Part shown: positions 11,687 to 39,981 of the stretch, piece by piece
Layout: every line of letters starts with the position of its first letter
Position numbering within the stretch: position 1 is the stretch's first letter
DNA from: an uncultured Clostridium sp.
Lineage (GTDB): Bacteria; Bacillota; Clostridia; TANB77; CAG-508
Assembly: GCA_948470605.1 (NCBI GenBank)
Contig: CAOKPI010000006.1
Coordinates: forward strand, 85-64,084
Direction of reading: 5' to 3'
Length of the DNA: 64,000 nucleotides
The notes under the pieces: model-generated
Databases searched by the model: none
Seen by the model: only the letters and a program-made list of their open reading frames with translations
Told to the model about the DNA's origin: nothing
Translations under genes and position numbers: made by a program

Positions 11687-11722
11687 AAAATCAAGAAAGT
11701 GGTGAAGTTTTCTTGATTTTTT
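11687..11722 (+). terminator. Rho-independent terminator after spoVT
   Basis: AAAATCAAGAAA-gtggtgaag-TTTCTTGATTTT with a T-run. Confidence 0.8.
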
Positions 11723-11778
11723 CCTTATTTTGGAGTATAATTTGGAAAGCGAATCAAATTGAAAAAAGGAGAAATTTT

Positions 11779-13533
11779 ATGAAAGCAATTGAGATAAGGA
11801 ATAAATATTTGGAATTTTTCAAAAGACATGGACATGCTGTTATTCCATCTGCACCATTAATTCCAGAAAATGACCCATCTGTATTATTCAATACAGCTGG
11901 TATGCAACCATTAGTACCTTATTTATTGGGAGAAAAACATCCATCTGGAACACGTTTAACCGATTATCAAAAATGTGTCAGAACGGTTGATATAGACGAA
12001 GTAGGAGACAATCGTCATTTGACCTATTTCGAAATGCTTGGAAACTGGTCATTAGGAGATTATTTCAAAGAAGAATCCATTAGCATGAGTTTCGAATTTC
12101 TAACCAAAGAATTAGGAATTCCAGTAGAAAAATTATCGGTAACTTGTTTTGCAGGAGATGAAGATTGCCCAAGAGATACCGTTTCTGCCGATAACTGGAA
12201 AAAAGTTGGAATTCCAGAGGATAGAATTTATTTTTATGGCAAAGGAGACAACTGGTGGATTGCAGGAGAAGAAGGACCTTGTGGACCAGATACAGAGATG
12301 TTCTATGATACTGGAAAACCAGCTTGTGGACCAGATTGCCAGCCATCTTGTGATTGTGGCAAATATGTTGAAATTTGGAATAATGTATTTATGGAATATT
12401 TTAAAAGTCAAAATGGTTATTCCAAATTAGAGAAAAAGAATGTGGATACAGGTCTAGGCTTAGAGAGAATGGCAATGTTATTACAGGGAAAAGAAACGCC
12501 TTTTGATACGGAATTGTTCCAACCAGTTATGAACAAATTACAACAGCTTCAAAAAGTAGATTATGTGGAAAGTAGAAGAATTGTAGCAGAGCATTTACGT
12601 TCTAGTATGATGATTATTGCAGATGGTGGAAAACCAAGTAATTTAGATAGAGGCTATGTTTTAAGAAGATTAATTAGAAGAATGATAAGACATTTAAATA
12701 AATTACAAATTGATTTAAGTGAACTTTCTGAATTAATAGAAATCAATGTGAAAAACTTAAAAGAAATGTATCCCGATTTAGAAAAAAACAAAGAAATGAT
12801 ACAAAGTGTTATTTTAGAAGAAAAAGATAAATTTGTAAAAACTTTAGCACATGGGGAACGAGAATTTGAAAAAGAAATTAAGAAAATGCAAGAAATAGGA
12901 AAGAAAAAGATTTCGGGAGAAATTGTTTTTCGATTATATGATACCTATGGTTTTCCACCAGAAGTAACCAAAGAGTTAGCAACAGAGCATGGGTATGAGG
13001 TAGATTTAAAGCAATTTGATGAACTATTTAAAAAACATCAAGAGAAGTCAAGACAAGGTTCAGAGCAAAAGTTTAAAGGTGGATTAGCAGAGCAAACAGA
13101 AGAGACCATAGCTTATCACACAGCTACTCATTTATTAAATGCCGCATTAAAGCAAGTCATTGGAAAAGATGCTCATCAAAGAGGTTCTAATATTACGGTT
13201 GATAGAATGAGATTTGATTTTAATTGTGACCATAAATTGACAGACGAAGAAAAGAAGGCGGTAGAAGATTTAGTGAATCAATGGATACAAGAAGGGCTAG
13301 AAGTAACCAAGCAGGAGATGAAAAAAGAAGAAGCTATTCAGTCTGGAGCAGAGTGTATGTTTATTGAAAAATATCCAGATATTGTAACTGTATATAGTAT
13401 AGGGGAAGTGTCCAAAGAACTATGTGGAGGTCCTCATGTGAAAAATACGAAGGAATTGGGAACTTTTAAAATTAAAAAAGAAGAATCTAGTTCGTCAGGG
13501 GTGAGAAGAATTAAAGCAGTTTTAGTGAAATAA
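11779..13533 (+). CDS. alaS: Alanine--tRNA ligase, short form (584 aa; catalytic, tRNA-recognition and editing domains, no C-Ala domain)
   Basis: IRNKYLEFFKRHGH...FNTAGMQP...FEMLGNWSLGDYFK; editing-domain motifs HTATHLLNAAL and CGGPHV; the ORF stops right after the editing domain. Confidence 0.85.
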   Translation: MKAIEIRNKYLEFFKRHGHAVIPSAPLIPENDPSVLFNTAGMQPLVPYLLGEKHPSGTRLTDYQKCVRTVDIDEVGDNRHLTYFEMLGNWSLGDYFKEESISMSFEFLTKELGIPVEKLSVTCFAGDEDCPRDTVSADNWKKVGIPEDRIYFYGKGDNWWIAGEEGPCGPDTEMFYDTGKPACGPDCQPSCDCGKYVEIWNNVFMEYFKSQNGYSKLEKKNVDTGLGLERMAMLLQGKETPFDTELFQPVMNKLQQLQKVDYVESRRIVAEHLRSSMMIIADGGKPSNLDRGYVLRRLIRRMIRHLNKLQIDLSELSELIEINVKNLKEMYPDLEKNKEMIQSVILEEKDKFVKTLAHGEREFEKEIKKMQEIGKKKISGEIVFRLYDTYGFPPEVTKELATEHGYEVDLKQFDELFKKHQEKSRQGSEQKFKGGLAEQTEETIAYHTATHLLNAALKQVIGKDAHQRGSNITVDRMRFDFNCDHKLTDEEKKAVEDLVNQWIQEGLEVTKQEMKKEEAIQSGAECMFIEKYPDIVTVYSIGEVSKELCGGPHVKNTKELGTFKIKKEESSSSGVRRIKAVLVK

Positions 13534-17476: not shown

Positions 17477-17972
17477 GTGTTGATATGAGCGAGTTTTATT
17501 AAAATGATAAAAATATAGAATTTTATAAAAAACTTGAAAAAACGACCGATTTTATAAAAATAGTAAAAAATAATAGCCTAACTGGTAGGTAGGGAATATG
17601 TCCATTGACATAGCTAAAATAAAAAATTTAATATGCCGATTACAGGAAATAGAGTGTTAGAATAGCACTTTATTTTTTTATTCTAAAAAAGTTTTGAATG
17701 TAAAAGCTAATAGATTTACAGATACAAATAAATGAACAAAAGAGATAAAGAAACGGATATAAAATTCAGGATTTTTCATAATAAAGATATGTCCGATTTG
17801 ATTAAATTTTATTAGCAAAAAGGCGGACAAAATAAAAGTATGCAAATGATTAAGAAATCTAAAAACAAAAGAAAATTACTGTATGGAGTTTAGGGTGTAC
17901 ATACAGGTAAGGGGTTCAAAAGAAAAAAAGATGATGTATATTAGTTTAATTAAGGAATGGAGGTTTAAGATT

Positions 17973-18902
17973 ATGAAAATAAGATTAAGTTCAAGGGATA
18001 TAGAGCTTATATGTTTTATAGGTAGATATAAGCAAATAAAATCAGTTGATTGTAAAAAGATTTATAAATCTAAAGATTATTATAGAAAAAGATTAAAAGT
18101 ATTAGAAAAGGCAGGATATGTAAAAAGAAAAAATACATATTATATAAAAATTGATATAGAGGGAAGAAGATTATTACAAGATTTTGGATATGAAAGTTAT
18201 AATCTTTGTAGAAATAAAGATTACAAAGACAGAATAAAAGATGTAGCAAAGATTGCAATGCTTGCATTTGAAGATGATATAAATTTTATACCTAGTTGGG
18301 AGCTAAAAGAAAATAATATTTATACAGATTTAGGTAGAAAATATATTGGTGAATTGCAGATTTTACAAGATAAATATATTGTGTATTATATTTCAAATAG
18401 AAATAACCCATTATATGTAAGACAAACTTTAACAGATATTAATAAAATGTTTTCAAATGATAAAGTAATCGTGTTTTTAGAAGATTTTGATAGAATCAAT
18501 AAAAGTAATAAGTATTTTACGATAAGTGGTAAATCTATACAGGTAATAAATCCAACAGAAGATAATTTAGAATTGATAAAGACTATTAAAGATATAGATA
18601 TTTATGACGTAGTAAAAGAAATCTACAAAGGAAAAGAAATACTGCTTTCTAACTGGAATAAAGCAGATTTTATAACAGAAGATAAAAGATATATTGTTTT
18701 TATGCCTTTTGTTGATACAGGAAAATTACATAAATTAAATGTAGCTTATGGAGATAATAAAGAAATTAAAAGAAATGTTGATATATTAACTTTAAAGGGA
18801 AATAGAAGTAAGATTAATGAAATGTTAGTTAAATCAACCAATATTATTGAAATTGATAAATGTTTAGATAAGATTAGAAACGAAAGCATGTTATGTGAAT
18901 AA
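17973..18902 (+). CDS. Replication-relaxation family-like protein (mobile element associated)
   Basis: N-terminal wHTH pattern RLSSRDIELICFIGRYKQIKSVDCKKIY resembles the LTxRDxxIL..L...R.LT motif of the Firmicutes replication-relaxation family; assignment from memory only. Confidence 0.45.
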   Translation: MKIRLSSRDIELICFIGRYKQIKSVDCKKIYKSKDYYRKRLKVLEKAGYVKRKNTYYIKIDIEGRRLLQDFGYESYNLCRNKDYKDRIKDVAKIAMLAFEDDINFIPSWELKENNIYTDLGRKYIGELQILQDKYIVYYISNRNNPLYVRQTLTDINKMFSNDKVIVFLEDFDRINKSNKYFTISGKSIQVINPTEDNLELIKTIKDIDIYDVVKEIYKGKEILLSNWNKADFITEDKRYIVFMPFVDTGKLHKLNVAYGDNKEIKRNVDILTLKGNRSKINEMLVKSTNIIEIDKCLDKIRNESMLCE

Positions 18903-18979
18903 TGAAATTTTTAATTTTAGATTTTATTGTAAAAATGGTCAACCTGTGATAAAATTACAGCATAATGGAGGAATGAAAA

Positions 18980-19378
18980 ATGTTTAATATTAATCATGTT
19001 GCAATAAGTGTAACAAATGCTGAAAATAGTATAGAATTTTATAAAAAGTTTGGATTTAAAAAGTTTAAATATTGGAAAGCAGAAGATGAAAGTATAAAAA
19101 TAAATATGCTAAAGTTAAATAATATAGTTTTAGAAATATTTTGCTATAAAGAATATACAAAATTGCCAGACACAGCAAAATCAACAGCAACAGATTTGCC
19201 AATATTAGGAACAAAACATTTTGCACTAGGTGTAGAAAATATTAAAAAAGCAAAAGAATTTGTATTACAGAATAATATTTGTCAAAGTGTAGATATAAAA
19301 ATAGGAAGATTAGGAAAACCATATTTCTTTATTAATGATCCAGATGGAATATTAGTAGAAATAATTGAGAATGATTAG
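18980..19378 (+). CDS. VOC (glyoxalase/bleomycin-resistance/dioxygenase) family protein
   Basis: 132 aa, INHVAISVTNAENSIEFYKK.GF...DPDGILVEIIE, the typical paired beta-alpha-beta-beta-beta module. Confidence 0.75.
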   Translation: MFNINHVAISVTNAENSIEFYKKFGFKKFKYWKAEDESIKINMLKLNNIVLEIFCYKEYTKLPDTAKSTATDLPILGTKHFALGVENIKKAKEFVLQNNICQSVDIKIGRLGKPYFFINDPDGILVEIIEND

Positions 19379-19387
19379 GGCATAAAA

Positions 19388-19756
19388 ATGTTAGTAAATG
19401 AAATAATAGAATATTGTCAAAAAAAGAATAAAGCATATATTGATTATCCATTTGGAGATATTCCAATATGCTTTAAAGTGAATAACAAAATTTTTGCAGA
19501 AATATATCCACTAGAGAATGATTATAAAATAACATTAAAATGTGATCCATTATTAGCAGAATTATATAGAAAACAGTATGAAGATGTAGTAATTAGAGGT
19601 TATCATTGCCCACCAGTTCAAGCAATTTACAGAAATACGGTTTATATAAATAAAACAGTTAGTGATGAGTTGATTTTTGAAATGATAGACCATTCTTACG
19701 ATGAAGTAATAAAAAGTTTTTCTAAAAAGATACAAAAACAATTACTAGAAAATTAG
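19388..19756 (+). CDS. MmcQ/YjbR family DNA-binding protein
   Basis: 122 aa, YPFGDIPICFKVNNKIFAEI pattern typical of YjbR/MmcQ. Confidence 0.65.
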   Translation: MLVNEIIEYCQKKNKAYIDYPFGDIPICFKVNNKIFAEIYPLENDYKITLKCDPLLAELYRKQYEDVVIRGYHCPPVQAIYRNTVYINKTVSDELIFEMIDHSYDEVIKSFSKKIQKQLLEN

Positions 19757-19770
19757 TAAAAAGAAAGGAA

Positions 19771-20694
19771 ATGTATATGTTATCAAATAAATTAAATATA
19801 GGAGACACAATAGGAATTATATCGCCATCAGCACCAATAACACAAGATTTAAAAGAACAATTTAATAGAGGACTACAAGTGTTTAAAGATATGGGATTTA
19901 AAATTGAGTTAAGTAAAAATGTATATGCAAATACATTAGGCTATTCATCTACAGTAAGTGAAAAAGTAGAAGATATAAATGAAATGTTTGCAAATAAAGA
20001 AGTAAAAGCAATAATATGCTCACAAGGTGGACAAAATTCAAATGCAATTCTTCCATACATAGATTATGAAATAATAAAAAATAATCCAAAAATAATAATG
20101 GGAATTAGTGATTCGACAGCGATACTAAATGCTATTTATGCAAAAACAGGAATTATAACATATCATCAAAACGATATTATTTGGGGATTAGGAAGAGAAG
20201 TATCAGAAAAAGAAGCTAATGATTTTAAATTAAGACTAATAGATGGAAAAAATGGAAAAGTAGAACATTTTACAAAATGGAGTTGTTTAAGAGATGGAAT
20301 AGCGGAAGAAGTTTTAGTTGGTGGTAATTTATCAACTCTTGTTAAATTATTAAAAACAGAATACTGTCCAGATTTTAATAATAAAATATTATTTTTAGAA
20401 GAGTATGCAGATGAATCTCCATTAGATGAGGTAGATAGCAAAATAAATATACTAAAACAACATAAAGTATTTGAAAAAATAAAAGGCTTATGGATAGGAT
20501 ATTATGAAAAAGATACAGAAATAGCAAAGTTTGAAGATGTAATAATGAACAATTTACAAGAATATGAATTTCCAATACTAAAATGTAATGATTTTGGACA
20601 TAATTGCGAAAATATAGTTATTCCAGTTGGTGCAAAAATAAAATTAGATGCTACAAATTGTGAAGTTGAAATAATAGAGAGAACATTGAATTAA
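19771..20694 (+). CDS. S66 family LD-carboxypeptidase / MccF-like serine peptidase
   Basis: GDTIGIISPSAP N-terminus, nucleophile motif GISDSTA, C-terminal FGHN histidine motif. Confidence 0.8.
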   Translation: MYMLSNKLNIGDTIGIISPSAPITQDLKEQFNRGLQVFKDMGFKIELSKNVYANTLGYSSTVSEKVEDINEMFANKEVKAIICSQGGQNSNAILPYIDYEIIKNNPKIIMGISDSTAILNAIYAKTGIITYHQNDIIWGLGREVSEKEANDFKLRLIDGKNGKVEHFTKWSCLRDGIAEEVLVGGNLSTLVKLLKTEYCPDFNNKILFLEEYADESPLDEVDSKINILKQHKVFEKIKGLWIGYYEKDTEIAKFEDVIMNNLQEYEFPILKCNDFGHNCENIVIPVGAKIKLDATNCEVEIIERTLN

Positions 20695-20794
20695 TATAAG
20701 ATAAAAGAGTAAATTATATTAAAAATGGATATAAAGATGTAAAAATTAAGTAAGAAAAAGTTGTAAAAGAAATAGAAAAATATTGCAAGATGAT

Positions 20795-20823
20795 TTGACA
20801 GAAACTTAAAATTATGTTAATAT
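20795..20823 (+). promoter_or_regulatory. SigA-type promoter of the His-leader / hisS-fusion operon
   Basis: TTGACA (20795-20800), 17 nt spacer, TGtTAATAT extended -10 (20815-20823). Confidence 0.65.
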
Positions 20824-20859
20824 ATAAACATATAAAAAATAGAAAAGAAGGAATTAATT

Positions 20860-20913
20860 ATGAAGTTAAGAATATTTTTAAACCAATTACATCATCATCG
20901 TAGGAGCTTGTAA
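20860..20913 (+). CDS. 17-aa leader peptide MKLRIFLNQLHHHRRSL with three consecutive His codons
   Basis: GAAGGA RBS 8 nt upstream; CAT CAT CAT at 20890-20898; followed by alternative hairpins and a terminator before the HisRS-fusion gene. Confidence 0.6.
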   Translation: MKLRIFLNQLHHHRRSL

Positions 20914-20927
20914 CTAGCATTTTTATG

Positions 20928-20957
20928 CGTAGGTACAGGCTAAAAACTGTACCTACG
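20928..20957 (+). promoter_or_regulatory. Leader hairpin (11 bp stem) with alternative pairing partners
   Basis: CGTAGGTACAG-gctaaaaa-CTGTACCTACG. The 3' arm CCTACGAT is also complementary to ATCGTAGG (20897-20904, overlapping the last His codon). It is also partly complementary to CTATTTGTAGG in the 5' arm of the terminator. Confidence 0.55.
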
Positions 20958-20989
20958 ATAGTTTAAAAATATTTAAGATAGATATACTT

Positions 20990-21037
20990 AAAAAGACTAT
21001 TTGTAGGAAATAAAATTTTTACAAATAGTCTTTTTTG
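20990..21037 (+). terminator. Leader (attenuator) terminator upstream of the HisRS-fusion gene
   Basis: AAAAGACTATTTGT-aggaaataaaattttt-ACAAATAGTCTTTT followed by TTTT, 65 nt before ATG 21102. Confidence 0.8.
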
Positions 21038-21101
21038 TGTATCTATTTTTGTTTAAAAATATTAAAACTTCATAATTAATAAAAAAAGAAAGGTGATTTA
21101 A

Positions 21102-23174
21102 ATGAAAAAGTTAGAATTAAAAAATGTAAAAGGTAGTTATGATTATGAAAGTAAAGATCAAATTATAAGAAATTATATCTCAGACACTTTAAGAGAAGTT
21201 TTTGAGAAATATGGGTACAAACCATTATCAACATCAATCTTATGTTATTATGATTTATTAGCTTTAAAATATGATGATGATAATGACATACTAAATGAAA
21301 TATATAAAGTAACAGACCAAGCCAAAAGAAATTTAGCATTAAGATATGATTTAACAGTATCATTTGCAAAATATATTGCAGTAAATAAAAACATAAATTT
21401 ACCATATAAAAGATATGAAATAGGAAAAGTATTTAGAGATGGTCCAGTAAAGCGAGGAAGAGTAAGAGAGTTTATTCAATGTGATGTAGATAGTGTAGGA
21501 ATAGAAGGGCAACTAATAGAAGCAGAACTAATTAGTTTATTTGTAGAAGGATATAGAAGATTAGGAATTGACATTATAATAAAATATAATAATAGAAAAA
21601 TTATGTCAGGGATAATTGAAATATGCAAAATTACAAAAGAAAAGATAAATCAAACAATAACAATAATTGATAAATTTGAAAAATTAACAAAAGAAGAAAT
21701 AAGATTAGAATTTGTAAAAATAGGGTTAGAAGAAGAACAAATAAATAATTTAATTAAATATTTAAATATGAACTTTGATGAAATTAAGGAAAAATTTGAA
21801 GGAATGCAAAATTTAGAATTACAAGAAGGAATAAAAGAAATAAATGAGTTAAATAAATATATAAAAAGTCTTAATTTAGATAACTATGTTCAATTTAAAG
21901 CAACACTTGCAAGAGGGCAAGAATATTATACAGGAACAGTATTTGAAGTTTATCAAACAAATGGAGATATAAAATCAAGCATTGGAGGTGGAGGAAGATA
22001 TGACAAAATGATAGGCAATTTTATAGGTGATGGCAAAAAATATCCAGCTGTTGGTATAAGTTTTGGACTAGATGTTATATTTGATATTTTGAAAGCAAAA
22101 GGAAATTTAAAAAATACAAATATAGATGTATATATAATTCCAATGCAAAACAAAATCCAAGCACTAAAAATTGCAACAGATTTAAGAAAACAAGATATAA
22201 ATGTAGATATTGAAATGAATAATAAAAAATTAAAAAAGGCATTAAATTATGCAAATATAGAAGAGATTCCATCTGTAATTATAATTGGAGATGATGAATT
22301 AAAAGAAGATAAAGTAATACTTAAAAATATGCAAACAGGTTCACAAATAAAAGTGAAAATCGAAGAAATAGCAAAAAATTTAAAAAATATAGATAAGAGT
22401 TTAAATTATAAAATATTAAATCCTGGAGGAAATAAAACAGCCATAGTTATAGGAAACGAGTATAGTAATGAAGATAAAAAGAAAATAAATGATAAAATTT
22501 TAAAAGAAAATCCAGATGTAGAACAAGTTGGATTTATAAGCAAAAAAGAAAACAAACTAGAAATGGCAGGAGGAGAATTTTGTATGAATGCAACAAGATG
22601 TGCAATATGGGAATATCTAAAAGGGGATTTAGGAGAAATAGAATTAAATGTTTCAGGTTGTAAAGAAAAAATAACAGGAGGAATAACAAAAGAAAAAGAG
22701 GTATATGTAAATATGCAAATAAACAAAAAAATGAGTGAAATTATAGAAAAAAACAACAAATTAAATTTTATAAAATTAGATGGAATATTATTAACTATAA
22801 TTGATGAAGAAAACTCAAAGAGATATATAGAAGAGTTAAAAAAAGATGAGGAAAAAGCGAAATTTAAATTAAAAGAAATAATGCAAACATTTGAAACATC
22901 TGAAAAAGCCTTAGGAATCATATTATTAGAAAAAGAAAAATCAAAAACTAAAATTAATCCTATAATTTGGGTAAAAACAATAGATACATTATATTATGAA
23001 ACAGCTTGTGGTAGTGGAAGTTTAGCAACAGCAATTTACAAGAATTATATAGAAGGAATAGAAAATTTAGAAATTATGCAACCATCAGGATATAGTATTA
23101 ATATAAACTTAAACCAAAAACAAGAATATATAGAAAATGCTATTATAACAGGAAAAGTAATCGAGGAGGAATAA
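21102..23174 (+). CDS. Histidine--tRNA ligase fused to a C-terminal CntK/HisR-like (DapF-fold) histidine racemase domain
   Basis: aa 1-~430: class II HisRS (FRDGPVKRGRVREFIQCD, LARGQEYYTG, GGGGRYD, anticodon-binding domain). aa ~433-690: NPGGNKTAIV, GGEFCMNATR (Cys codon 22581-22583), ETACGSGS (Cys codon 23007-23009). Confidence 0.75.
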   Translation: MKKLELKNVKGSYDYESKDQIIRNYISDTLREVFEKYGYKPLSTSILCYYDLLALKYDDDNDILNEIYKVTDQAKRNLALRYDLTVSFAKYIAVNKNINLPYKRYEIGKVFRDGPVKRGRVREFIQCDVDSVGIEGQLIEAELISLFVEGYRRLGIDIIIKYNNRKIMSGIIEICKITKEKINQTITIIDKFEKLTKEEIRLEFVKIGLEEEQINNLIKYLNMNFDEIKEKFEGMQNLELQEGIKEINELNKYIKSLNLDNYVQFKATLARGQEYYTGTVFEVYQTNGDIKSSIGGGGRYDKMIGNFIGDGKKYPAVGISFGLDVIFDILKAKGNLKNTNIDVYIIPMQNKIQALKIATDLRKQDINVDIEMNNKKLKKALNYANIEEIPSVIIIGDDELKEDKVILKNMQTGSQIKVKIEEIAKNLKNIDKSLNYKILNPGGNKTAIVIGNEYSNEDKKKINDKILKENPDVEQVGFISKKENKLEMAGGEFCMNATRCAIWEYLKGDLGEIELNVSGCKEKITGGITKEKEVYVNMQINKKMSEIIEKNNKLNFIKLDGILLTIIDEENSKRYIEELKKDEEKAKFKLKEIMQTFETSEKALGIILLEKEKSKTKINPIIWVKTIDTLYYETACGSGSLATAIYKNYIEGIENLEIMQPSGYSININLNQKQEYIENAIITGKVIEEE

Positions 23175-23178
23175 AAAT

Positions 23179-24198
23179 ATGAGTGCAAAAGATATTTTAA
23201 AAGATTTAGTAAAATTCAATACAGTAAAAGATAAAGACAATAAAGAAATAATTAGTTATATAGAGAAAATTTTAAAAAGTAAAGGATTTAAAACCGATTA
23301 TAAAAGCAAAGATTTAATAATGAGTATAAAAAATAAAAACACTTTAGGTTTTTTAGGTCATACAGACACAGTTGGGGCAGGTAACGACTGGAATACAAAT
23401 CCATTTGAACTAAAGGAAAGTAAAGGGAATTTATATGGACTAGGAACATGTGACATGAAAGGTGGAATTGCTGCTATTTTACAAGCAGTACTAGAAACAG
23501 ATTGGGAAAAATTAAAATATGGAATAAAATTATATTTTACTTATGATGAAGAAATCAATTTTTTAGGAATAAAAGAGATAATTCAAAAAAAAGAAAAATT
23601 TCCTGACAATATGATTATAGGAGAGCCAACAAATAATGCTATAATGAATGGAAGTAAAGGATTACTAGAACTAAAATTAGATTTTAATGGAATTTCAGCA
23701 CATTCAAGTATGCCATATGAAGGTGAAAATGCAATAGAAAAATGTATAGAATTTATAAATGAATTAAAAATCTTCTATAATCAATTAAAAGAAGATAAAA
23801 GTGATGTTTTTGAAATAGGATATACAACTATGAATATAGGAAAAATAGATGGAGGTAAAAGTATAAATATTGTTCCAAATAGTTGCAAAGTACTAATAGA
23901 TTTTAGAATTATAAAAGATGAGCATATAAATTTGATACTAAATAAAATTAACGAACTTACACAAAATTATAAGGGGAATTATGAAATAATAAACAATATA
24001 AAACCTTTTATAAATCAAGATGAAGATATTTATCCTACCAATTTTATAACAGAAGCTAGTTTTATAGATTCAAAAAATAGATATATTTTGGGTGGAGGAC
24101 CAATTAATCCACATGAAGCAAATGAATATATATCTAGAGATAGTTTAGAAAATTTAGTTAAGCAGTATAAAGAAATGATATGTAAATATTGCAATTAA
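23179..24198 (+). CDS. M20 family metallohydrolase (ArgE/DapE-like)
   Basis: GHTDTVGAG...NPF...LYGLGTCDMKGG metal-binding motifs; starts 4 nt after the fusion gene stop. Confidence 0.8.
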   Translation: MSAKDILKDLVKFNTVKDKDNKEIISYIEKILKSKGFKTDYKSKDLIMSIKNKNTLGFLGHTDTVGAGNDWNTNPFELKESKGNLYGLGTCDMKGGIAAILQAVLETDWEKLKYGIKLYFTYDEEINFLGIKEIIQKKEKFPDNMIIGEPTNNAIMNGSKGLLELKLDFNGISAHSSMPYEGENAIEKCIEFINELKIFYNQLKEDKSDVFEIGYTTMNIGKIDGGKSINIVPNSCKVLIDFRIIKDEHINLILNKINELTQNYKGNYEIINNIKPFINQDEDIYPTNFITEASFIDSKNRYILGGGPINPHEANEYISRDSLENLVKQYKEMICKYCN

Positions 24199-24284
24199 AA
24201 AATGTTTTGATACAAATTAAACTAATTATCCGCATTTGGTTGACAAGTGCGGGTAATTGGTTTAAAATAGATTTGGTGGTAAGT

Positions 24285-24827
24285 ATGATATATAATTATA
24301 AAGAAATTAAAGAGAAGTATAAAACTAATTATAAAATTAATAAAGCAATTAAAGATAAAGAGCTATATAAAATAGAAAAAAATATATATTCTGATACAAA
24401 AAATGTAAACTATTTAGAAATGATTTCAAAAAAATACCCAAATGCAATTTTCACAATGGATAGTGCATTCTATTTCCATAATCTAACGGATGTCATTCCA
24501 AGTAAAATAAATTTAGCTATTGAAAGAAATTCATCACGTATTAAAGATGAAAAAATAAATCAAGTTTTAACTATAAAAAAATTATTCGAAATTGGCAAGA
24601 TGCAAATGATTGTTGAAGGAGCTATTATTAATGTGTATGATAAAGAAAGAATGCTAATAGAATTAATCCGAAATAAAAATCAAATTGCTTTTGATTATTA
24701 TAAAGAAATTATTTCCAACTATAGAAAAATAATAAGTGACATAGATATAAGTAAAATTGAAGAATATATAGAGATATTCCCACATGAAGAGCATATATAT
24801 GAAACATTACAGAGAGAGGTGTTCTAA
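24285..24827 (+). CDS. Type IV TA system AbiEi family antitoxin-like protein
   Basis: ~180 aa, precedes the AbiEii gene and overlaps it (TAATG); LYKIEKNIYS / MDSAFYFHNLTD pattern typical of AbiEi. Confidence 0.65.
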   Translation: MIYNYKEIKEKYKTNYKINKAIKDKELYKIEKNIYSDTKNVNYLEMISKKYPNAIFTMDSAFYFHNLTDVIPSKINLAIERNSSRIKDEKINQVLTIKKLFEIGKMQMIVEGAIINVYDKERMLIELIRNKNQIAFDYYKEIISNYRKIISDIDISKIEEYIEIFPHEEHIYETLQREVF

Positions 24828-25648
24828 TGGATTTAAAAGAAATGAGACAAAGATACATAAATGAAGGATATGATTTTTTAGATGCATCAGCAAAAGTATG
24901 CCAAGATATACTTTTAGCTAAAATATCTAAAAGTGCATTAAATAGAAATATAACTATAAAAGGCGGAGTAGTAATGCACAATATTTCAAAAGATAGCAGA
25001 CGTGCTACCAGAGATTTAGACTTAGATTTTATCAAATATTCGTTAGATGATAAATCAATAAAAAATTTTATAGAAAAATTAAATTATCCCAAAACAGATA
25101 TAAGCATAAATATAATAGGTAAAATTGAAGAACTAAGTCATCAAGATTATAATGGAAAAAGAGTATATATTGAAGTTAAGGATAAAAAACATAATAAAAT
25201 TGAAACTAAATTAGACATAGGAGTACATAAAAACTTTGATATAGAACAAGATGAATGTTGTTTTGATTTAAACAATATAAATGAAAGTGTTACATTGTTA
25301 ATAAATTCAAAAGAACAAATTTTTACGGAAAAGTTAAAATCATTATTAAAATTTGGATTTGTTTCAACAAGGTATAAAGATATATTTGATTTCTATTATC
25401 TAATAAATAATGAAGATTTAAATAAAGATAAGTTACTTAAGTGCTTTCACACCTTTATATTTAGTGATGATACAATGAAAGAAGATAATTTAGAAGACAT
25501 ATTTAATAGACTAAAAAGAATATTACATAATAGAAATTACTTAAAAAATTTAAACACAGCTAAAAATAATTGGTTAGAACTACCAATAGAAGAAGTGATT
25601 AAAAGCGTATTAGATTATTTTGAGACATTGCAAGTTGCAGAAGTATAG
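24827..25648 (+). CDS. Nucleotidyltransferase AbiEii/AbiGii toxin family protein
   Basis: ITIKGGVVMHN...RATRDLDLDF matches the AbiEii NTase motif (LKGGTAL...R.S.DLDF). Confidence 0.75.
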   Translation: MDLKEMRQRYINEGYDFLDASAKVCQDILLAKISKSALNRNITIKGGVVMHNISKDSRRATRDLDLDFIKYSLDDKSIKNFIEKLNYPKTDISINIIGKIEELSHQDYNGKRVYIEVKDKKHNKIETKLDIGVHKNFDIEQDECCFDLNNINESVTLLINSKEQIFTEKLKSLLKFGFVSTRYKDIFDFYYLINNEDLNKDKLLKCFHTFIFSDDTMKEDNLEDIFNRLKRILHNRNYLKNLNTAKNNWLELPIEEVIKSVLDYFETLQVAEV

Positions 25649-25887
25649 GAGTATATTTTAAATATGTTCTTATTTTTTTGTTAAAATTAATTAGAATTTT
25701 TATAAGGATTTGAAACGAATATATATTTTTTACCATCAAATTAGATATAATAAACTTTTGGCAGATTTGTCAAAAAGTTCTAAGAAAATACAATATTTTT
25801 CTGAATGTAATTTGAAATAATTTACATAATTTGAACAAAATTCAAAAATATGGTAAAATATAAATATTAAAAAGGGGTGAGATAGTA

Positions 25888-28236
25888 GTGTTAGAGAATT
25901 TAGATAAAGAACAGCTAATACAAATTATTGAAAAATTAGAGAAAGAAAACAAAGAACTAAAAGAAAAAATATATGGAAAAGTAGAAGAAAAACAATCACC
26001 TAAAGAAAATAAAGTTATTTCTAATGAAGAAAAAGTAAAAATTTTTATGGAAGTATTTAAAGGAAGAACAGATTTATATGCAAAAAGATGGACAAGTAAT
26101 AAAACTGGAAAATCAGGATATTCACCAGTTTGTAAGAATGAATTTAGTGCATACAAATGTGATAAGCAAAGAGTAAAATGTAATGAATGTCCTTTTAGGG
26201 AACTAACACCATTAACAGAGGATATAATATTAAAGCATTTAAAAGGTAATATTACAATAGGGATATATCCATTATTACCAGGTGATTTATGCAATTTCTT
26301 AGCAATAGATTTTGATAAGAAAACCTATGAAAAAGATGTAACTGAATTTTGGAGTATATGTGATGAATTTGAGATTCCAGTTTATGTAGAAAGATCACAA
26401 TCAGGGAATGGAGTACATGTATGGATATTTTTTGAAAAAAGTATGCCAGCTAGAATTGCTAGAAAAATGGGGAATATATTATTAACTAAAACAATGGAAA
26501 AAGCAGCTTTAGATTTAGATTCGTACGACAGATTATTTCCAAATCAAGATATAATTCCAAAAGGAGGATTTGGAAATTTAATAGCATTGCCATTTCAAGG
26601 TGAAAGTAGTAAAAAAGGAAATACAGTTTTTGTAAATAAATATTTTGAAGTAGAGAAAAATCAAATAAATATTTTAAATAATATAAAAAGAATGAAAAGT
26701 GATGAAATATATTCATTTATTGATAAATACAAAGAAGATGATTATAAAGAACCTGATATAGAAGAAAGCTTAGAAGATGATGATGAAATACCTAAAAAGG
26801 AAAATATTAAAGATACAATATTTACTAACAATGTGGAGTGCATACTTGATAATCAAATATATATTAAGAAATTAAAATTATTACCAAATGAAATAACATA
26901 TTTAAAAAGACTAGCTAGTTTTACTAATCCAAAGTTTTATGAATTACAAAAACTAAGAATGCCGATATTTTATAAAACAACACCTAGAATAATAAGTTGT
27001 TTTGAAGAAGATGAAAGATTCTTAAAATTGCCAAGAGGACTAATAGATAAAGTTTTAGAAATATGTGAAAAAAGCAATGTTAAGTTAATAAAAAAAGACA
27101 CAAGAGAAAATGGAATTGAAACAAACTACAAGTTTAATGGAAAGTTAAATAATAAACAAGAAAAAGTAATGAAAGAATTACTAAAATATGATGTAGGAGT
27201 ATTGTGTGCTACAACAGGATTTGGAAAAACAGTGGTAGGAGCTAAAATTATTTCAGAATTAAAAACGAATACATTAGTTATAGTTAATAGAAACAATCTT
27301 TTAGAACAATGGAAAGAAAGATTATCATATTTTTTAGATATAAACAAAAAAGAAATAGGACAGATAGGAGCAAGTAAAGAAAAGCCAAATGGAAAATTAG
27401 ATGTAGCAAGTTTTCAATCTTTATTTAAAAAAGATAATCTAGAAGAATTAGTTAAAGATTATGGGTTAGTTATTGTAGATGAATGTCATCATGTTGCTGC
27501 ATATAGTTTCGAAAAAGTATTAAAAGCTGTAAGAAGTAAACATGTATATGGTTTAACTGCAACACCAACAAGAAAAGATGGATGGCATAAAATAATATAT
27601 ATGCAATGTGGTGATATAAGAGTTAGAGTATCTAATAAAGAATTAAAACAGAATAAAGAAATGGAACATACAGTAATTGTAAAAAAGACCAATTATAAAT
27701 ACATTCCAACTGAAGAAAAAGATAAAGTACAAATTTCAGAAATTCTTAATGACATGTGTCATAATCCTTTTAGAAATAGTATTATCATAGAGGATATAAA
27801 AATAGCTATAGAAGAAGGTAGAATTCCAATAGTTTTAACTGAAAGAGTAGAGCATCTAAAAATTTTAAAAGACAGTTTAGAAAGACTAGAAATACCAGTT
27901 GTTATATATAAAGGAAATATGGGAAAAAAGAAAACAAAAGAAATTCAAGATATTATAAAAGAAACAGATAAAAATAATAAATCAAGAATAATATTGGCGA
28001 CAAGTAGTTCTATAGGAGAAGGCTTTGATGATAGTAGGCTAGACACACTATTTTTAACAATGCCAGTTTCATGGAAAGGAAGAATTATACAATATGTAGG
28101 AAGATTGCATAGAGAACATGAAGATAAAGAGAAAGTAATAGTGTATGACTATTTAGATAATATGAAAGTTTTAGAAAAAATGTATAATAGAAGATTAAAA
28201 GGATATAAAATTGCAGGATATGAGATTATAGAGTAA
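25888..28236 (+). CDS. Archaeo-eukaryotic primase (prim-pol)-like domain fused to an SF2 DEAD/DEAH-type helicase
   Basis: N-terminal coiled coil; AEP motifs AIDFDKK (DxD) and SQSGNGVHVWIFF (sGxGxH), then GNLIALPFQG. Helicase motifs ATTGFGKT, VDECHH, GLTATPTRKDG, TSSSIGEGFD, QYVGRLHR. GTG start with GGGGTGAG RBS. Confidence 0.8.
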   Translation: MLENLDKEQLIQIIEKLEKENKELKEKIYGKVEEKQSPKENKVISNEEKVKIFMEVFKGRTDLYAKRWTSNKTGKSGYSPVCKNEFSAYKCDKQRVKCNECPFRELTPLTEDIILKHLKGNITIGIYPLLPGDLCNFLAIDFDKKTYEKDVTEFWSICDEFEIPVYVERSQSGNGVHVWIFFEKSMPARIARKMGNILLTKTMEKAALDLDSYDRLFPNQDIIPKGGFGNLIALPFQGESSKKGNTVFVNKYFEVEKNQINILNNIKRMKSDEIYSFIDKYKEDDYKEPDIEESLEDDDEIPKKENIKDTIFTNNVECILDNQIYIKKLKLLPNEITYLKRLASFTNPKFYELQKLRMPIFYKTTPRIISCFEEDERFLKLPRGLIDKVLEICEKSNVKLIKKDTRENGIETNYKFNGKLNNKQEKVMKELLKYDVGVLCATTGFGKTVVGAKIISELKTNTLVIVNRNNLLEQWKERLSYFLDINKKEIGQIGASKEKPNGKLDVASFQSLFKKDNLEELVKDYGLVIVDECHHVAAYSFEKVLKAVRSKHVYGLTATPTRKDGWHKIIYMQCGDIRVRVSNKELKQNKEMEHTVIVKKTNYKYIPTEEKDKVQISEILNDMCHNPFRNSIIIEDIKIAIEEGRIPIVLTERVEHLKILKDSLERLEIPVVIYKGNMGKKKTKEIQDIIKETDKNNKSRIILATSSSIGEGFDDSRLDTLFLTMPVSWKGRIIQYVGRLHREHEDKEKVIVYDYLDNMKVLEKMYNRRLKGYKIAGYEIIE

Positions 28237-28576
28237 AATATTTTTTTGGAATAAAGAGAAGTGGATATAAAAAAATCTTGAAAAGCTACAGCTATAAGCA
28301 AATAAAAAAATAGGGTGTTTATATTCCATTTTTAAAAAATATATAGTATAATATATCTGTGTTAAGAAATTGTCATTACATAGCATATGTAGTTGATACC
28401 ATCAAAATGGGTAAAGCTGATAAATCAGCAATTACTTTGTAAAAACAAAGGTAAAGTAGAAAACTTTGTGTTAGGACAAAGGTAAAAAGAGTAATATAAA
28501 AAAGCACAAAATTACTCCGCTTAAAAATATAACAAAGGGAGTATTGTGTCTAAAAGTAAATAATAGATGAATTACA

Positions 28577-28607
28577 ATAACAAGTAAAAATGCTTGTTAT
28601 TTTTTTC
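28577..28607 (+). terminator. Terminator separating the helicase region from the recombinase module
   Basis: ATAACAAG-taaaaatg-CTTGTTAT plus T6. Confidence 0.7.
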
Positions 28608-28640
28608 TACTTAAAAATAAAAGACAGGAGGTGTAAGAAA

Positions 28641-28784
28641 ATGATAGAAATTAAAAATAGTAATATTCAAAGAAATATAAGAAAAAGTGCATATATAGGA
28701 ATTTTAAACAAGCTAACAAAAGAAAATAAAATTACAAAAAATGAATATGAAAAAATCAAAAACAAAATCAACAAAAGATGCTAA
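28641..28784 (+). CDS. Small SHOCT-like protein (47 aa) preceding the recombinase
   Basis: AGGAGGTG RBS; C-terminal KITKNEYEKIKNKI resembles the SHOCT motif; weak assignment. Confidence 0.4.
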   Translation: MIEIKNSNIQRNIRKSAYIGILNKLTKENKITKNEYEKIKNKINKRC

Positions 28785-28858
28785 TAACTGTGAATTTGTA
28801 TTGAAAAAGAAATGTTTTTAATATATAATGAAACAGTAATCGGCAAGAAGGAGGTAAG

Positions 28859-30697
28859 ATGGCCGAAGTACAAATAATTGAAAAAGTAAATGGTCGAATA
28901 GACAGAAATAAAGGAACCATAATAAATGGACCAATTAAAGTAGCAGCCTATGCAAGAGTAAGCACAGACAAAGAAGACCAAAAAAATAGTTATGGATCAC
29001 AATTAAAATACTATATGGAAAAAATGAATGCAAACCCAAAATGGATAGCAACACAAGTGTATGCAGATGAGGCAATTTCAGGAACACAAGACTACAAAAG
29101 AAGTGACTTTATGAGAATGATACATGATGCATTAAATGGAAAGTTTGATTTATTACTAACAAAATCAATTTCAAGATTTGCAAGAAACACAGTTGATACA
29201 TTATCCTATGTAAGAAAGTTAAAAGAAAAAAATGTTGCGATACTCTTTGAAGAAGAAAACATCAATACACTTGAAATGAGTGGAGAATTATTACTAACTA
29301 TATTAAGTTCAGTAGCACAACAAGAAAGTGAAACAATATCATCACATGTAAAACTAGGACTAAAAATGAAAATGCAAAGAGGAGAATTAGTAGGATTTCA
29401 TGGATGTTATGGTTATGACTATGATAAATTGACAAAGACATTAACTGTAAATGAAGAAGAGAAAAAAGTGATTCAATACATTTTTGGCAGATATGCACAA
29501 GGTGCAGGAACAACAATGATTGCAAAAGAATTGACAGAAGCGGGGATACCAACAAGAAGAGGTAATCCAATATGGTGTGAAACAGTAATAAGAAAAATTA
29601 TCAAAAATGAAAAATACAAAGGAGACTTATTACAAGGCAAAACATTTACAGTAGATCCAATTACTCATAGAAGATTAGAAAACATGGGAGAAGAACAAAA
29701 ATACTTAATAGAGAAAAATCATGAAGCAATTATTGATGATGAAACTTGGGATAAAGTTCAAGAAATCTTGCAAAAAAGAAGCGAAAATTATAATAAAGGT
29801 ACAAGAAGTGGAACATTTAGGAGAATGTATGCTTTTAGTGGAATAACTTATTGTGCATTTTGTGGAAGGTTAGTTACTAGAAAAAATTGGGTAAGTTCAA
29901 CCAAAAATAAAAAAGCATGGTATTGTTCAACAGCAATAAAACAAGGCAGAAAATATTGTAGAGATAGCAAACCAATACCAGAAAAAGTAATAGAAAAATG
30001 TTTTTTAGATGCTTATAGAGTTTTATGTGCAGATAAAGCTACCATCATTAGAAACTTTATGGAAAAGGCAGAACCAATATTACAAGAAAATAATAGCAAA
30101 GAAGAAATTGAAAAATTAAATATACAAGAACATGACTTAAAAGAAAGACTAAAGAAATTATTAGATTTAAAGTTAGATAATACAATTACAGAAGAAGCTT
30201 TTAAAGAAAAAAATCATGAGATAGAAAGAAAAATAAGAAACATTCAAAAACAAATAGAAAACAAAGCTAGTACAGTAAATAAAGAAGATAACTTAAAATC
30301 TAAAGTGGAAGAAATTAAAAATCTTTTAAAAAGTCATAACATCATAACTGAATTTGACAGAGAAGTTTTTGATATATTAGTAGACAAAGTAATTATTGGA
30401 GAAATTGATGAAAAAGGAAATAAAAATCCATATGTAATTAGTTTTATCTTGAAAGGTAGCAAAAAGACTGATAGTTATGAATTATCAGAAGAACTAGAAA
30501 AGAAAGTAAAAAAGAAAAGCATAAAGCCAATAAGTATAGAAGATAAAAATGTGATATGTGAAATAAAAAGTTTTCAAAAATTAAAGATATTTGAAAAAGA
30601 TGAAGATTTGTTTAGAACTAAGAAACAACTTGAATATATCAAGGTAAAAGTAATAACAGATTATGATAAAGACATTTCTTCCAACATAGCAAATTAG
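28859..30697 (+). CDS. Large serine recombinase
   Basis: 612 aa; resolvase catalytic domain AAYARVSTDKEDQ...SISRFARNT, recombinase and zinc-ribbon domains (CAFCG...YYCS), C-terminal coiled coil. Confidence 0.9.
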   Translation: MAEVQIIEKVNGRIDRNKGTIINGPIKVAAYARVSTDKEDQKNSYGSQLKYYMEKMNANPKWIATQVYADEAISGTQDYKRSDFMRMIHDALNGKFDLLLTKSISRFARNTVDTLSYVRKLKEKNVAILFEEENINTLEMSGELLLTILSSVAQQESETISSHVKLGLKMKMQRGELVGFHGCYGYDYDKLTKTLTVNEEEKKVIQYIFGRYAQGAGTTMIAKELTEAGIPTRRGNPIWCETVIRKIIKNEKYKGDLLQGKTFTVDPITHRRLENMGEEQKYLIEKNHEAIIDDETWDKVQEILQKRSENYNKGTRSGTFRRMYAFSGITYCAFCGRLVTRKNWVSSTKNKKAWYCSTAIKQGRKYCRDSKPIPEKVIEKCFLDAYRVLCADKATIIRNFMEKAEPILQENNSKEEIEKLNIQEHDLKERLKKLLDLKLDNTITEEAFKEKNHEIERKIRNIQKQIENKASTVNKEDNLKSKVEEIKNLLKSHNIITEFDREVFDILVDKVIIGEIDEKGNKNPYVISFILKGSKKTDSYELSEELEKKVKKKSIKPISIEDKNVICEIKSFQKLKIFEKDEDLFRTKKQLEYIKVKVITDYDKDISSNIAN

Positions 30698-30790
30698 CAA
30701 AATTTAAGTGAATTTTCATATCTTTAAAATACATACCACAGATATTGAGTATAAAATGATGATGTAAAATTAGAAAGGAAGAATGTTACA

Positions 30791-39727: not shown

Positions 39728-39802
39728 TTTGGTTAGATATTGGTTAGATATATCTTAAAAACAAAAATATTATCAAAACGATGAAAGCCTTGATAATACT
39801 AA

Positions 39803-39888
39803 TGGTGGGCAGGGAAGGATTCGAACCTTCGTACTCAAATGAGAACAGATTTACAGTCTGCCGCCTTTAGCCACTCGGCCACCTACCC
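39803..39888 (-). tRNA. tRNA-Tyr (GTA anticodon), long variable arm, CCA encoded; its 3' 56 nt form attR
   Basis: Reverse complement GGGTAGGTGGCCGAGTGGCTAAAGGCGGCAGACTGTAAATCTG...GGTTCGAATCCTTCCCTGCCCACCA folds as a class II cloverleaf. Confidence 0.9.
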
Positions 39889-39904
39889 AAATATAAAATT
39901 AATA

Positions 39905-39981
39905 TGGTGCTCCCTCAAGGATTCGAACCTTGGACCCACCGGTTATGAGCCGGTTGCTCTGACCAACTGAGCTAAGGGAGC
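39905..39981 (-). tRNA. tRNA with CAT anticodon (Met, or lysidine-modified Ile2)
   Basis: Reverse complement GCTCCCTTAGCTCAGTTGGTCAGAGCAACCGGCTCATAACCGGTGGGTCCAAGGTTCGAATCCTTGAGGGAGCACCA. It resembles Bacillus tRNA-Ile2(CAU) as I recall it, but its identity cannot be fixed by eye. Confidence 0.85.

Follow-up and report, generated by a model that had tools for sequence, protein, structure and literature searches.

Why should a histidyl-tRNA synthetase (HisRS) be joined to a racemase of its own amino acid? This question is raised by a gene, here called hisS::rac, in a 64,000-nucleotide (nt) stretch of contig CAOKPI010000006.1 from an uncultured Clostridium sp.; the whole of this stretch is referred to as the window. 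Histidine racemases have been recognised only recently, and their role outside staphylopine was left open by the 2024 paper on HisR of Fusobacterium nucleatum (PMC11602996). The locus is a predicted two-gene operon, hisS::rac followed by an M20-family gene, under a His leader-peptide attenuator. Together with its relatives, it offers the first strong contextual handle on the role of the racemase: control by a sensor of how far tRNA-His is charged, and repeated fusion to HisRS and HisG as well as to enzymes that process acyl groups or peptides. These point to a concrete hypothesis, namely that D-histidine (D-His) or acyl-histidine may be used, or guarded against, during histidine limitation.

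The fusion protein and its operon partner

The open reading frame (ORF) of hisS::rac runs on the forward strand from an ATG at 21102 to 23174, encodes 690 amino acids (aa) and has no internal stop. Its coordinates, its motifs and the cysteine codons 22581 and 23007, all given in an initial annotation of this DNA, were recovered by the ORF call and by alignments. The initial annotation had also read the N-terminal part as a complete HisRS, and profile searches agreed with it. The Pfam domain tRNA-synt_His was matched at aa 26-325 (E 1e-40) and is followed by HGTP_anticodon, and the NCBIfam model for hisS, TIGR00442, scored 343.2 bits, above its cut-off of 286.75. The top-scoring model was the PRK12420 equivalog (NF009085), aligned over 2-425 of its 426 positions with 506.6 bits, which is below its cut-off of 540. 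The nearest solved structures are the HisRS of Elizabethkingia, human and Nostoc, that is, of the archaeal/eukaryote-like lineage. All the HisRS motifs listed in Table 1, which cover motifs 2 and 3 and the His-specific HisA and HisB motifs, are invariant across 22 aligned fusions, and so are both cysteines of the racemase half. When 64 fused HisRS sequences were compared with 48 stand-alone ones (112 sequences), 108 columns were invariant and no position was specific to either group. The HisRS half can be classified from these matches as a complete, canonical PRK12420-type class II synthetase, and the lack of fusion-specific substitutions argues strongly against a novel reaction in this half, for example the activation of D-His or a synthesis that depends on the adenylate.

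A linker of about 5-10 residues, variable in length among fusions, leads from HisRS into the racemase half. This domain gave full-length matches to two NCBIfam models, His_racem_CntK (E 1e-24, 87 bits) and the Fusobacterium HisR model (E 1e-22, 81 bits), in both cases below the equivalog cut-off (300 and 400, respectively). Its two cysteines, Cys494 (GGEFCMNATR) and Cys636 (ETACGSGS), align with the catalytic pair of HisR (9CR1/9CR6), where they correspond to C67 and C209, and with that of CntK (6L4L/6JIS). In HisR, the proposed ligands of the amino, carboxylate and imidazole groups of histidine are N18, E49, E65, N69, E206 and S211 (PMC11602996). Their respective counterparts in the fusion, N444, E474, E492, N496, E633 and S638, are invariant in the 22-sequence alignment. 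The position of HisR G68 is taken by Met, Val, Ala or Ile in the fusion family; the contact made there by HisR is through the backbone. The CntK-like racemase proposed in the initial annotation is thus backed by the profile matches and by the placement of both cysteines on the catalytic pair. Judged by the model scores, the domain represents a separate subfamily of CntK/HisR-type enzymes.

The structure check called for in the initial annotation gave the same picture. An AlphaFold model of the fusion had a mean pLDDT of 74; the value was ~90 for the racemase half, and the core of the synthetase was modelled poorly. Foldseek with this model recovered human HisRS (E 3e-26) and CntK 6JIS (E 5.4e-18, TM 0.70 over 271 columns), the latter in keeping with a DapF-like fold. 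The possibility that the domain is a degenerate His-binding regulatory module was ruled out: the catalytic motifs are intact in every fusion type examined, so the domain should be an enzyme rather than a degenerate sensor. The first protein of the operon is accordingly best described as bifunctional, with predicted HisRS and CntK/HisR-type histidine racemase activities.

How does this racemase relate to the two that have been solved? With CntK of Staphylococcus aureus (6JIS/6L4L; E 5e-12) it shares the two-domain DapF-like fold, the cysteine pair and the proposed histidine ligands (Glu, Asn and Ser). Unlike CntK, with which it is only about 22-25% identical, it is fused to HisRS and lies under His-leader control instead of responding to metal starvation, and the window has no cntL, cntM or opine transporter genes. 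HisR of F. nucleatum (FN1732) is the best sequence match among solved structures (E 9e-15), with C67, C209, N18, E49, E65, E206 and S211 conserved, and both racemases occur without an opine pathway; HisR, however, is an orphan stand-alone gene, whereas the window domain is part of a HisRS fusion in a His-regulated operon. The sequence network in the HisR paper was limited to proteins of 250-308 aa, which excluded the fusions (PMC11602996).

The second gene of the operon starts 4 nt past the stop codon of the fusion, and its assignment as an ArgE/DapE-like M20 hydrolase in the initial annotation is supported by the ORF, by Pfam (Peptidase_M20, E 7e-24; M20_dimer, E 3e-23) and by an alignment with E. 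coli ArgE (7RSF), its best solved relative, in which the metal and catalytic motifs GHTDTV, DMKGG, DEE and GEPT coincide. Operon coupling is also seen elsewhere: the ORFs overlap in locus L003, and rac and M20 are fused in locus L077.

An M20 deacylase followed by a DapF-fold epimerase recalls DapE/DapF (or DapL/DapF), with equal folds in the same logical order. The racemase domain, however, scored 18.5 bits with DapF (TIGR00652, cut-off 114.65) against 87 with CntK, and it carries the Glu residues typical of histidine racemases. The His-codon regulation described below and the fusions to HisRS and HisG tie the racemase to histidine rather than to lysine or cell-wall synthesis. On these scores and this His-specific context, a DapF/DapE function was ruled out. 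A staphylopine-like cntKLM cluster was likewise rejected: no NAS/CntL or Staph_opine_DH/CntM domain was found among the 29 window ORFs covered by the Pfam scan, which left out smaller ORFs, in agreement with the initial annotation, nor among the called genes of related loci.

Could the fusion be an artefact, two genes joined by a sequencing error? Frameshifted rac genes do occur in some loci from metagenome-assembled genomes (MAGs; L018, L053, L057, L075). A search of ~5.8 billion proteins nevertheless returned 65 clusters (90% identity) of full-length, in-frame fusions, 685-708 aa long and 59-99% identical, which derive from independent ENA, NCBI and Logan assemblies and have linkers of variable length. 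Further in-frame fusions were present in metagenome loci L094, L097, L112, L120, L122 and L124. The mis-assembly that the initial annotation had considered is therefore dismissed by this survey, and we regard the chance that the fusion is an artefact as negligible.

The initial annotation had known of no described pathway with this architecture, and the full-text literature indeed yielded no description of a HisRS-racemase fusion or of a racemase in a His regulon, and nothing relevant on D-His with HisRS or on bacterial N-acetyl-His deacetylases. The parts (HisRS, a CntK/HisR-type racemase, an M20 deacylase, a leader attenuator) are known; what is new is their combination, the regulon and the network of fusions. 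As far as we have found, this is the first case in which an aminoacyl-tRNA synthetase (aaRS) is fused to a racemase of the amino acid that it charges. The mycobacterial LysX (LysRS-MprF) is also a complete aaRS joined to a second enzyme that handles its amino acid. In LysX, however, the partner consumes the aminoacyl-tRNA product, whereas the partner in the window would act on the free amino acid, upstream of the synthetase.

The leader upstream of the operon

What controls the operon? The 407-nt gap upstream of the fusion ORF holds a leader ORF and a structured region (Table 1). The leader ORF has a Shine-Dalgarno sequence, AGAAGGA, 7-8 nt upstream. A peptide of the MKLRIFLNQLHHHRRSL type, with the HHH run at an equal position, precedes 43 hisS, hisS-rac or rac operons in related loci. 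The promoter-like site begins at 20795, the very coordinate from which the initial annotation had started its feature; promoter-like matches are about as frequent as expected by chance in DNA this rich in AT (52 found vs 49 expected), so that the site is weak alone, and its position fits.

The leader has the traits of a ribosome-mediated attenuator: a short ORF with tandem His codons, overlapping and mutually exclusive helices, and a U-run. An alignment of 30 leaders was used for the consensus structure and for covariation. The consensus contains a long-range helix P1, helices A0:C and A:B, and the terminator D:E. The arrangement of B:C with the terminator D:E is 96.7% paired and has 7 double-compensated pairs, which was equalled by none of 500 shuffles; in one terminator pair (alignment columns 178/214), GC was found in 13 sequences, CG in 8, AU in 6 and UA in 3. 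A simple terminator scan had overlooked this terminator, the stem of which has few G-C pairs.

Two truncated RNAs were folded to represent the alternative ribosome positions. With the ribosome stalled at the His codons (20906-21008), the RNA folds as A:B plus C:D, an antiterminator. With the ribosome at the stop codon (20927-21008), it folds as B:C, leaving GUAGG of segment D free for the terminator. These folds follow the classical logic of attenuation, from which we infer that a shortage of charged tRNA-His induces the operon; expression under that condition is a well-supported inference from sequence. In the proposed mechanism, a ribosome stalled at HHH would cover A0, A:B would form, C would pair with D and transcription would read through; a ribosome at the leader stop codon would cover A, so that B:C and then the terminator D:E would form. 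One point speaks against this reading: the A:B plus C:D antiterminator is 97% pairable but invariant, and thus lacks covariation support. Segments A, B, C and D each have several alternative partners, and invariance is therefore expected of them.

The peptide itself seems to be conserved largely as RNA. The I-F-L-N codons pair with GTTTAAAAATAT 80 nt downstream to give helix P1, conserved in the 30 leaders. The RRSL codons, CGTAGGAGCTTG, make up segments A0 and A. Since these codons form one strand of P1 and A0 plus A, respectively, the conservation of the leader peptide is probably for the most part an RNA constraint.

At the gathering threshold, the Rfam models T-box (RF00230) and His_leader (RF00514) matched nothing in the window or in 7 related loci, and within 20700-21110 they gave no match even at E up to 10. 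Control by a T-box was thus ruled out. His leader attenuators have precedents in Firmicutes: one lies before the accessory PRK12420-type hisS* and hisZ in the Bacillus cereus group (PMC2965389), and others precede the his operons of Peptostreptococcaceae and Erysipelotrichales (PMC9413887). Both papers are silent on racemases. The window shares with these systems the PRK12420-type HisRS, the tandem-His leader ORF and a terminator/antiterminator instead of a T-box, but its leader differs in sequence and, in its clade, has racemase, M20 and GNAT genes under its control as well. We therefore regard the window attenuator, on comparison of the leaders, as a new member of the known His leader-peptide attenuators, one that matches no Rfam family. 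Leader-peptide attenuation in Firmicutes is thereby extended to a new clade and a new set of genes.

Table 1. Features of the operon, its leader and the surrounding element (window positions; segment positions after a hyphen are abbreviated).
Feature	Position	Strand	Details and basis
Promoter-like site	20795..20823	+	TTGACA, 17 nt spacer, TAATAT with upstream TG; 37 nt before leader ORF
Leader peptide ORF MKLRIFLNQLHHHRRSL	20860..20913	+	17 codons; three consecutive His codons at 20890-20898; Shine-Dalgarno upstream
Attenuator RNA	20872..21051	+	Mutually exclusive pairings; fold z-score -9.9
Attenuator segments P1 to B			P1 20872-83 with 20961-72; A0 CGTAGG 20899-904; A 20905-12; B 20928-41
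Attenuator segments C to outer helix			C 20947-64; D 20990-21007; E 21020-36; outer helix 20977-87 with 21037-47, then U-run
Intrinsic terminator	20990..21042	+	16-20 bp AU-rich stem, then U-run; fold, consensus, covariation
HisRS catalytic core, aa 1-330	21102..22091	+	Motif 2 FRDGPVKRGRVREFIQCD; LARGQEYYTG; GGGGRYD; GISFGLD
HGTP anticodon-binding domain of HisRS, aa 342-429	22125..22388	+	Pfam E 5.5e-17
Cofactor-independent DapF-fold two-Cys histidine racemase domain (predicted), aa 434-686	22401..23159	+	Cys494 codon 22581; Cys636 codon 23007
M20 ArgE/DapE-family metallo-deacylase (predicted), operon gene 2	23179..24198	+	339 aa; Pfam, NCBIfam, ArgE alignment
Putative integrative mobile element carrying the operon	17480..30755		~13 kb; left end approximate, right end ~30755
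Large serine recombinase gene	28859-30697		phrog_95 integrase match; right end of element just after
Variable defence slot	24342..28225	+	AbiEi/AbiEii 24189-25648; TOTE AEP-primase/helicase 25888-28236; L089 comparison, Pfam
Upstream three-gene unit	18980..20694	+	Glyoxalase/bleomycin-resistance family, YjbR, S66 LD-carboxypeptidase/MccF-like; context only

Relatives, regulon and possible function

A scan for the racemase domain, with one genome per species, gave 151 relatives; the locus counts given here cover the best 79 of these loci, almost all of them in MAGs of uncultured Clostridia from rabbit, mouse, ruminant, chicken and human guts. A HisRS fusion with the racemase C-terminal was present in 12 of the 79 loci, and a HisRS gene was fused, adjacent or within 10 kb in about 34. 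M20 lies directly downstream of rac in about 28. Separate hisS genes adjoin rac in L020, L064, L083 and L074, and HisRS also exists as a stand-alone protein of 425-457 aa that shares 74-80% identity with the N-terminal part of the fusion. Upon clustering at 50% identity, the HisRS-racemase architecture is a single representative among 1,809 racemase-family clusters, which means that the fusion is common within one narrow clade. The rac genes split by frameshifts in MAG loci L018/L019, L053, L057 and L075 may reflect gene decay or assembly error. Source databases put no names on the ten homologue clusters looked up.

The racemase has other partners as well. Locus L082 (9953-12121) has the reverse order, Rac-HisRS, with a different, canonical-type HisRS; P0123 is a HisG-Rac fusion; and L077 (2596-4434) is the Rac-M20 fusion mentioned above. 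A VanX-like M15 dipeptidase is fused to Rac in both orders (M15-Rac in P0131, Rac-M15 in P0143), and so is a GNAT acyltransferase (Rac-GNAT in L081 and P0137, GNAT-Rac in P0261). In a neighbour-joining tree of the racemases, fused and free states interleave: the window fusion is sister to the free L006, the fused L010 and L012 are sister to the free L013, and the free L027 falls inside a fused group. Where rac is free, the leader stands immediately upstream of it. L091, which is fused, and L020, a closed MAG chromosome of 1.8 Mb with separate hisS and then rac, have GDSL lipase and Ser_hydrolase genes in common upstream, which indicates that the fusion arose by the joining of neighbours.

These relatives bear on the idea, put forward in the initial annotation, of a unique and dedicated HisRS-racemase pathway. 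The anatomy stands, but uniqueness and dedication do not: the fusion is labile and, in the window, mobile cargo, and the conserved core appears from the comparison to be racemase plus M20 (with GNAT elsewhere) in a His-starvation regulon. They also bear on whether the HisRS has been neofunctionalised, so as to activate D-His or to transfer histidine to a non-tRNA acceptor, giving a His-containing metabolite that M20 would trim. Paralogues of aaRS perform such chemistry elsewhere. The window HisRS, however, shows none of the changes that such a role would suggest in the comparison of 64 fused with 48 free sequences, its anticodon-binding domain is intact, fused and free states interleave, syntenic loci have separate hisS and rac, and there is no carrier protein, condensation enzyme or ligase nearby. 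We consider this reading very improbable. Among the roles suggested in the initial annotation, D-His consumption (salvage) and D/L protection thus emerge as the most plausible, and tRNA- or adenylate-dependent synthesis of a metabolite as the least, there being no fusion-specific change in HisRS.

Which genes share the leader? In L085-L088, a MKLRIFLNQLHHHRRSL-type leader precedes a stand-alone hisS 75-79% identical to the fused half. Scanning metagenome contigs with the invariant leader core gave 33 additional loci. Behind it stand hisS::rac-M20, PRK12420-type hisS, canonical-type hisS, hisZ-hisG, hisG-hisIE, an SBP_bac_3 ABC binding protein, rac-M20, M20 alone, GNAT-M20 and GNAT alone. The GNAT (194-209 aa) is followed by M20 in L099 (4736-6342), L104 (6957-8573), L111 (736-2350) and L119, and the free GNAT is 43% identical to the Rac-fused one. 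A common leader before hisS, his genes, rac, M20 and GNAT marks a His-starvation regulon, and comparison of the loci shows the racemase, M20 and this specific GNAT to be members of it.

A more distant clade, which includes Clostridium sp. CAG:440 (L081), has a different His leader, MK..KNINKVHHHF. The operon of L081 (6215-14147) runs in the order hisZ, hisG, Rac-GNAT fusion, hisIE, canonical hisS, VanX-like M15 dipeptidase. A PRK12420-type hisS lies just upstream, and hisZ, hisG and hisIE are the only genes of the biosynthetic pathway within 10 kb.

What, then, would the operon do for a starving cell? The most likely function, which we put forward tentatively, is histidine scavenging that feeds tRNA charging, in the order M20, racemase, HisRS. 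In this proposal, M20 would free histidine from an N-acyl or dipeptide conjugate, the racemase would equilibrate D- and L-His, and the attached HisRS would act as an irreversible, L-specific sink that pulls L-His into His-tRNA, giving a net flux from D to L. Expression confined to starvation would avoid wasteful L-to-D racemisation, and the operon as a whole would widen the supply of histidine for translation. Scavenging is the simplest model that fits the control by starvation, the unmodified synthetase and the sequence in which genes and fused domains are arranged (M20 or M15, Rac, HisRS).

Several points weigh against scavenging. A racemase has no intrinsic direction. The M20 protein falls below every NCBIfam equivalog cut-off (for example, TIGR01892, 211.6 vs 297.7, and TIGR01910, 199.6 vs 217.6), and the operon contains no transporter for D-His or His conjugates. 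The main problem is GNAT: the regulon and the racemase family are tied to it through Rac-GNAT fusions and GNAT-M20 operons, salvage leaves it unexplained, and acetylation of histidine under starvation looks counter-productive. The GNAT-M20 operons co-induce an acetyltransferase and a deacylase, and no simple model accounts for them.

The GNAT would find a place if the racemase worked from L to D. It would then produce D-His or, via GNAT, N-acetyl-D-His for a metallophore, an envelope component or a signal; M20, M15 and S66 enzymes would remodel or recycle D-His compounds, and HisRS would merely be co-regulated with all consumers of histidine. CntK makes D-His for staphylopine, the role of HisR is non-salvage, and a Fusobacterium hisR mutant is clumpy (PMC11602996). 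Rac-GNAT fusions would draw L-His through D-His to an acetylated product, and partners of a D-amino-acid type are present, namely the VanX-like M15 fused to Rac and the neighbouring S66 LD-carboxypeptidases. Against D-His production, starvation is the wrong moment to divert L-His, HisRS fusions in both orders and the HisG fusion are hard to account for, no CntL or CntM domain was found (29 window ORFs scanned) and the operon offers no candidate downstream ligase or exporter. We think D-His production possible but unlikely.

A third use of the same enzymes would run from D to L irreversibly: GNAT would acylate D-His, the racemase would invert the N-acyl-histidine and an L-specific M20 would release L-His for HisRS. 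Such a triad of GNAT, racemase and M20 hydrolase reportedly constitutes the N-succinylamino acid racemase (NSAR) pathway of Geobacillus. The same enzyme classes co-occur here, since all three pairings were found behind His leaders (Rac-GNAT fusion, Rac-M20 operon and fusion, GNAT-M20 operon), and the 43% identity of free and fused GNAT indicates homology. The NSAR racemase, however, belongs to the enolase superfamily and takes N-succinyl substrates, whereas the window racemase has the DapF fold, conserves the residues that bind a free alpha-amino group and is expected to need free histidine; HisR rejects all backbone-modified histidines (PMC11602996). Moreover, the window operon has no GNAT, the aaRS link is new with respect to NSAR, and the HisRS-Rac fusion would put HisRS beside an enzyme whose product stays acylated. 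An NSAR-like route is, in our view, doubtful.

One could also imagine, as an unlikely but more inclusive scheme, a D-histidine/N-acyl-histidine branch wired into the regulon that senses His-tRNA. GNAT, racemase, M20 and M15 would interconvert L-His, D-His and acylated or dipeptide forms, which might serve as a private store of histidine, as a currency for cross-feeding, or to guard HisRS and HisG on the basis of chirality; the fusions would channel histidine or shield the free-His site, and mobile elements would spread the module between species.

The putative mobile element and the rest of the window

Is the operon a resident of this genome? The genes at 17883-30697 have a GC content of 0.23-0.28, and the flanking core genes ligA and folD of about 0.30-0.35. 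A contig from mouse gut (L089) is 95-97% identical over 18280-24341 and 28226-30755 and unrelated beyond 30755. The matching span comprises a 339-aa protein, the glyoxalase, YjbR and S66 peptidase genes in equal order, the leader, the fusion, M20 and the large serine recombinase. The slot filled by AbiEi/AbiEii and the TOTE primase-helicase in the window holds ToxN in L089. From the low GC and the abrupt end of the identity we conclude that the operon is carried here by an integrative element of ~13 kb, in which one slot holds exchangeable defence genes. Direct repeats like att sites flanking the element were sought, and only chance-level repeats were found. The first gene of the element (17883-18902), for the 339-aa protein conserved in L089, had no Pfam, NCBIfam or PHROG match. 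A host that receives such an insertion should possess, or once have possessed, a hisS of its own, and the fusion is therefore probably an accessory copy in the source genome; no second hisS lies within the window. An aaRS-containing metabolic module would thus travel on a mobile element among abundant uncultured gut bacteria.

The setting differs among relatives. In L003, the cassette has integrases and a Mob_Pre relaxase as its neighbours. The hisS-rac pair of the low-GC lineages L020 and L091 looks chromosomal, with conserved context. No relative was found in IMG/VR contigs, and GenBank phages and PLSDB plasmids gave distant CntK/DapF-like matches only; carriage by phage or plasmid was ruled out on these grounds.

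Such a setting invites the thought that the module protects the cell. D-His, a histidine analogue or a mimic of histidyl-adenylate would compete at HisRS and HisG and cause apparent starvation; the leader would then induce extra HisRS, a racemase placed beside the sensitive enzymes, and GNAT, M20 and S66 enzymes, and the element would spread a resistance-like module. One classical way to resistance is an additional aaRS copy carried by a mobile element. The cargo is resistance-like (a glyoxalase/bleomycin-resistance family protein, YjbR and the S66 MccF-like peptidase), and the proteins that confer immunity to microcin C, MccE and MccF, are of the GNAT and S66 classes. Furthermore, HisRS and HisG, to both of which the racemase is fused, are exactly the pair of enzymes that bind free histidine. 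On the other side, we know of no natural product that targets HisRS, and the fused HisRS has no substitutions, relative to its stand-alone homologues, that suggest insensitivity. The racemase would also turn L-His into D-His and could not clear D-His alone, and the low-GC lineages keep their hisS-rac pair off mobile elements. Protection is in our judgement improbable, if worth keeping in mind, and scavenging of histidine for tRNA charging remains the reading we tentatively favour.

The S66 gene of the upstream unit has counterparts in distant loci: S66 genes lie within 10 kb of rac in L017, L058, L066, L076, L079, L081 and L082. Elsewhere in the window, a class 3 (Firmicute) fructose-1,6-bisphosphatase is split into two overlapping ORFs (8939-10904; FBPase_2 positions 1-228 and 228-638), by a frameshift, as a pseudogene or through a sequencing error. 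An alanyl-tRNA synthetase ORF of 606 aa (11713-13533) stops right after tRNA_SAD and misses the C-Ala portion normally found at the C-terminus. Integrated elements abound in the window, which also has a tyrosine integrase next to tRNA-Tyr and tRNA-Met at 38510-39981 and a second large serine recombinase gene at 46509-48299.

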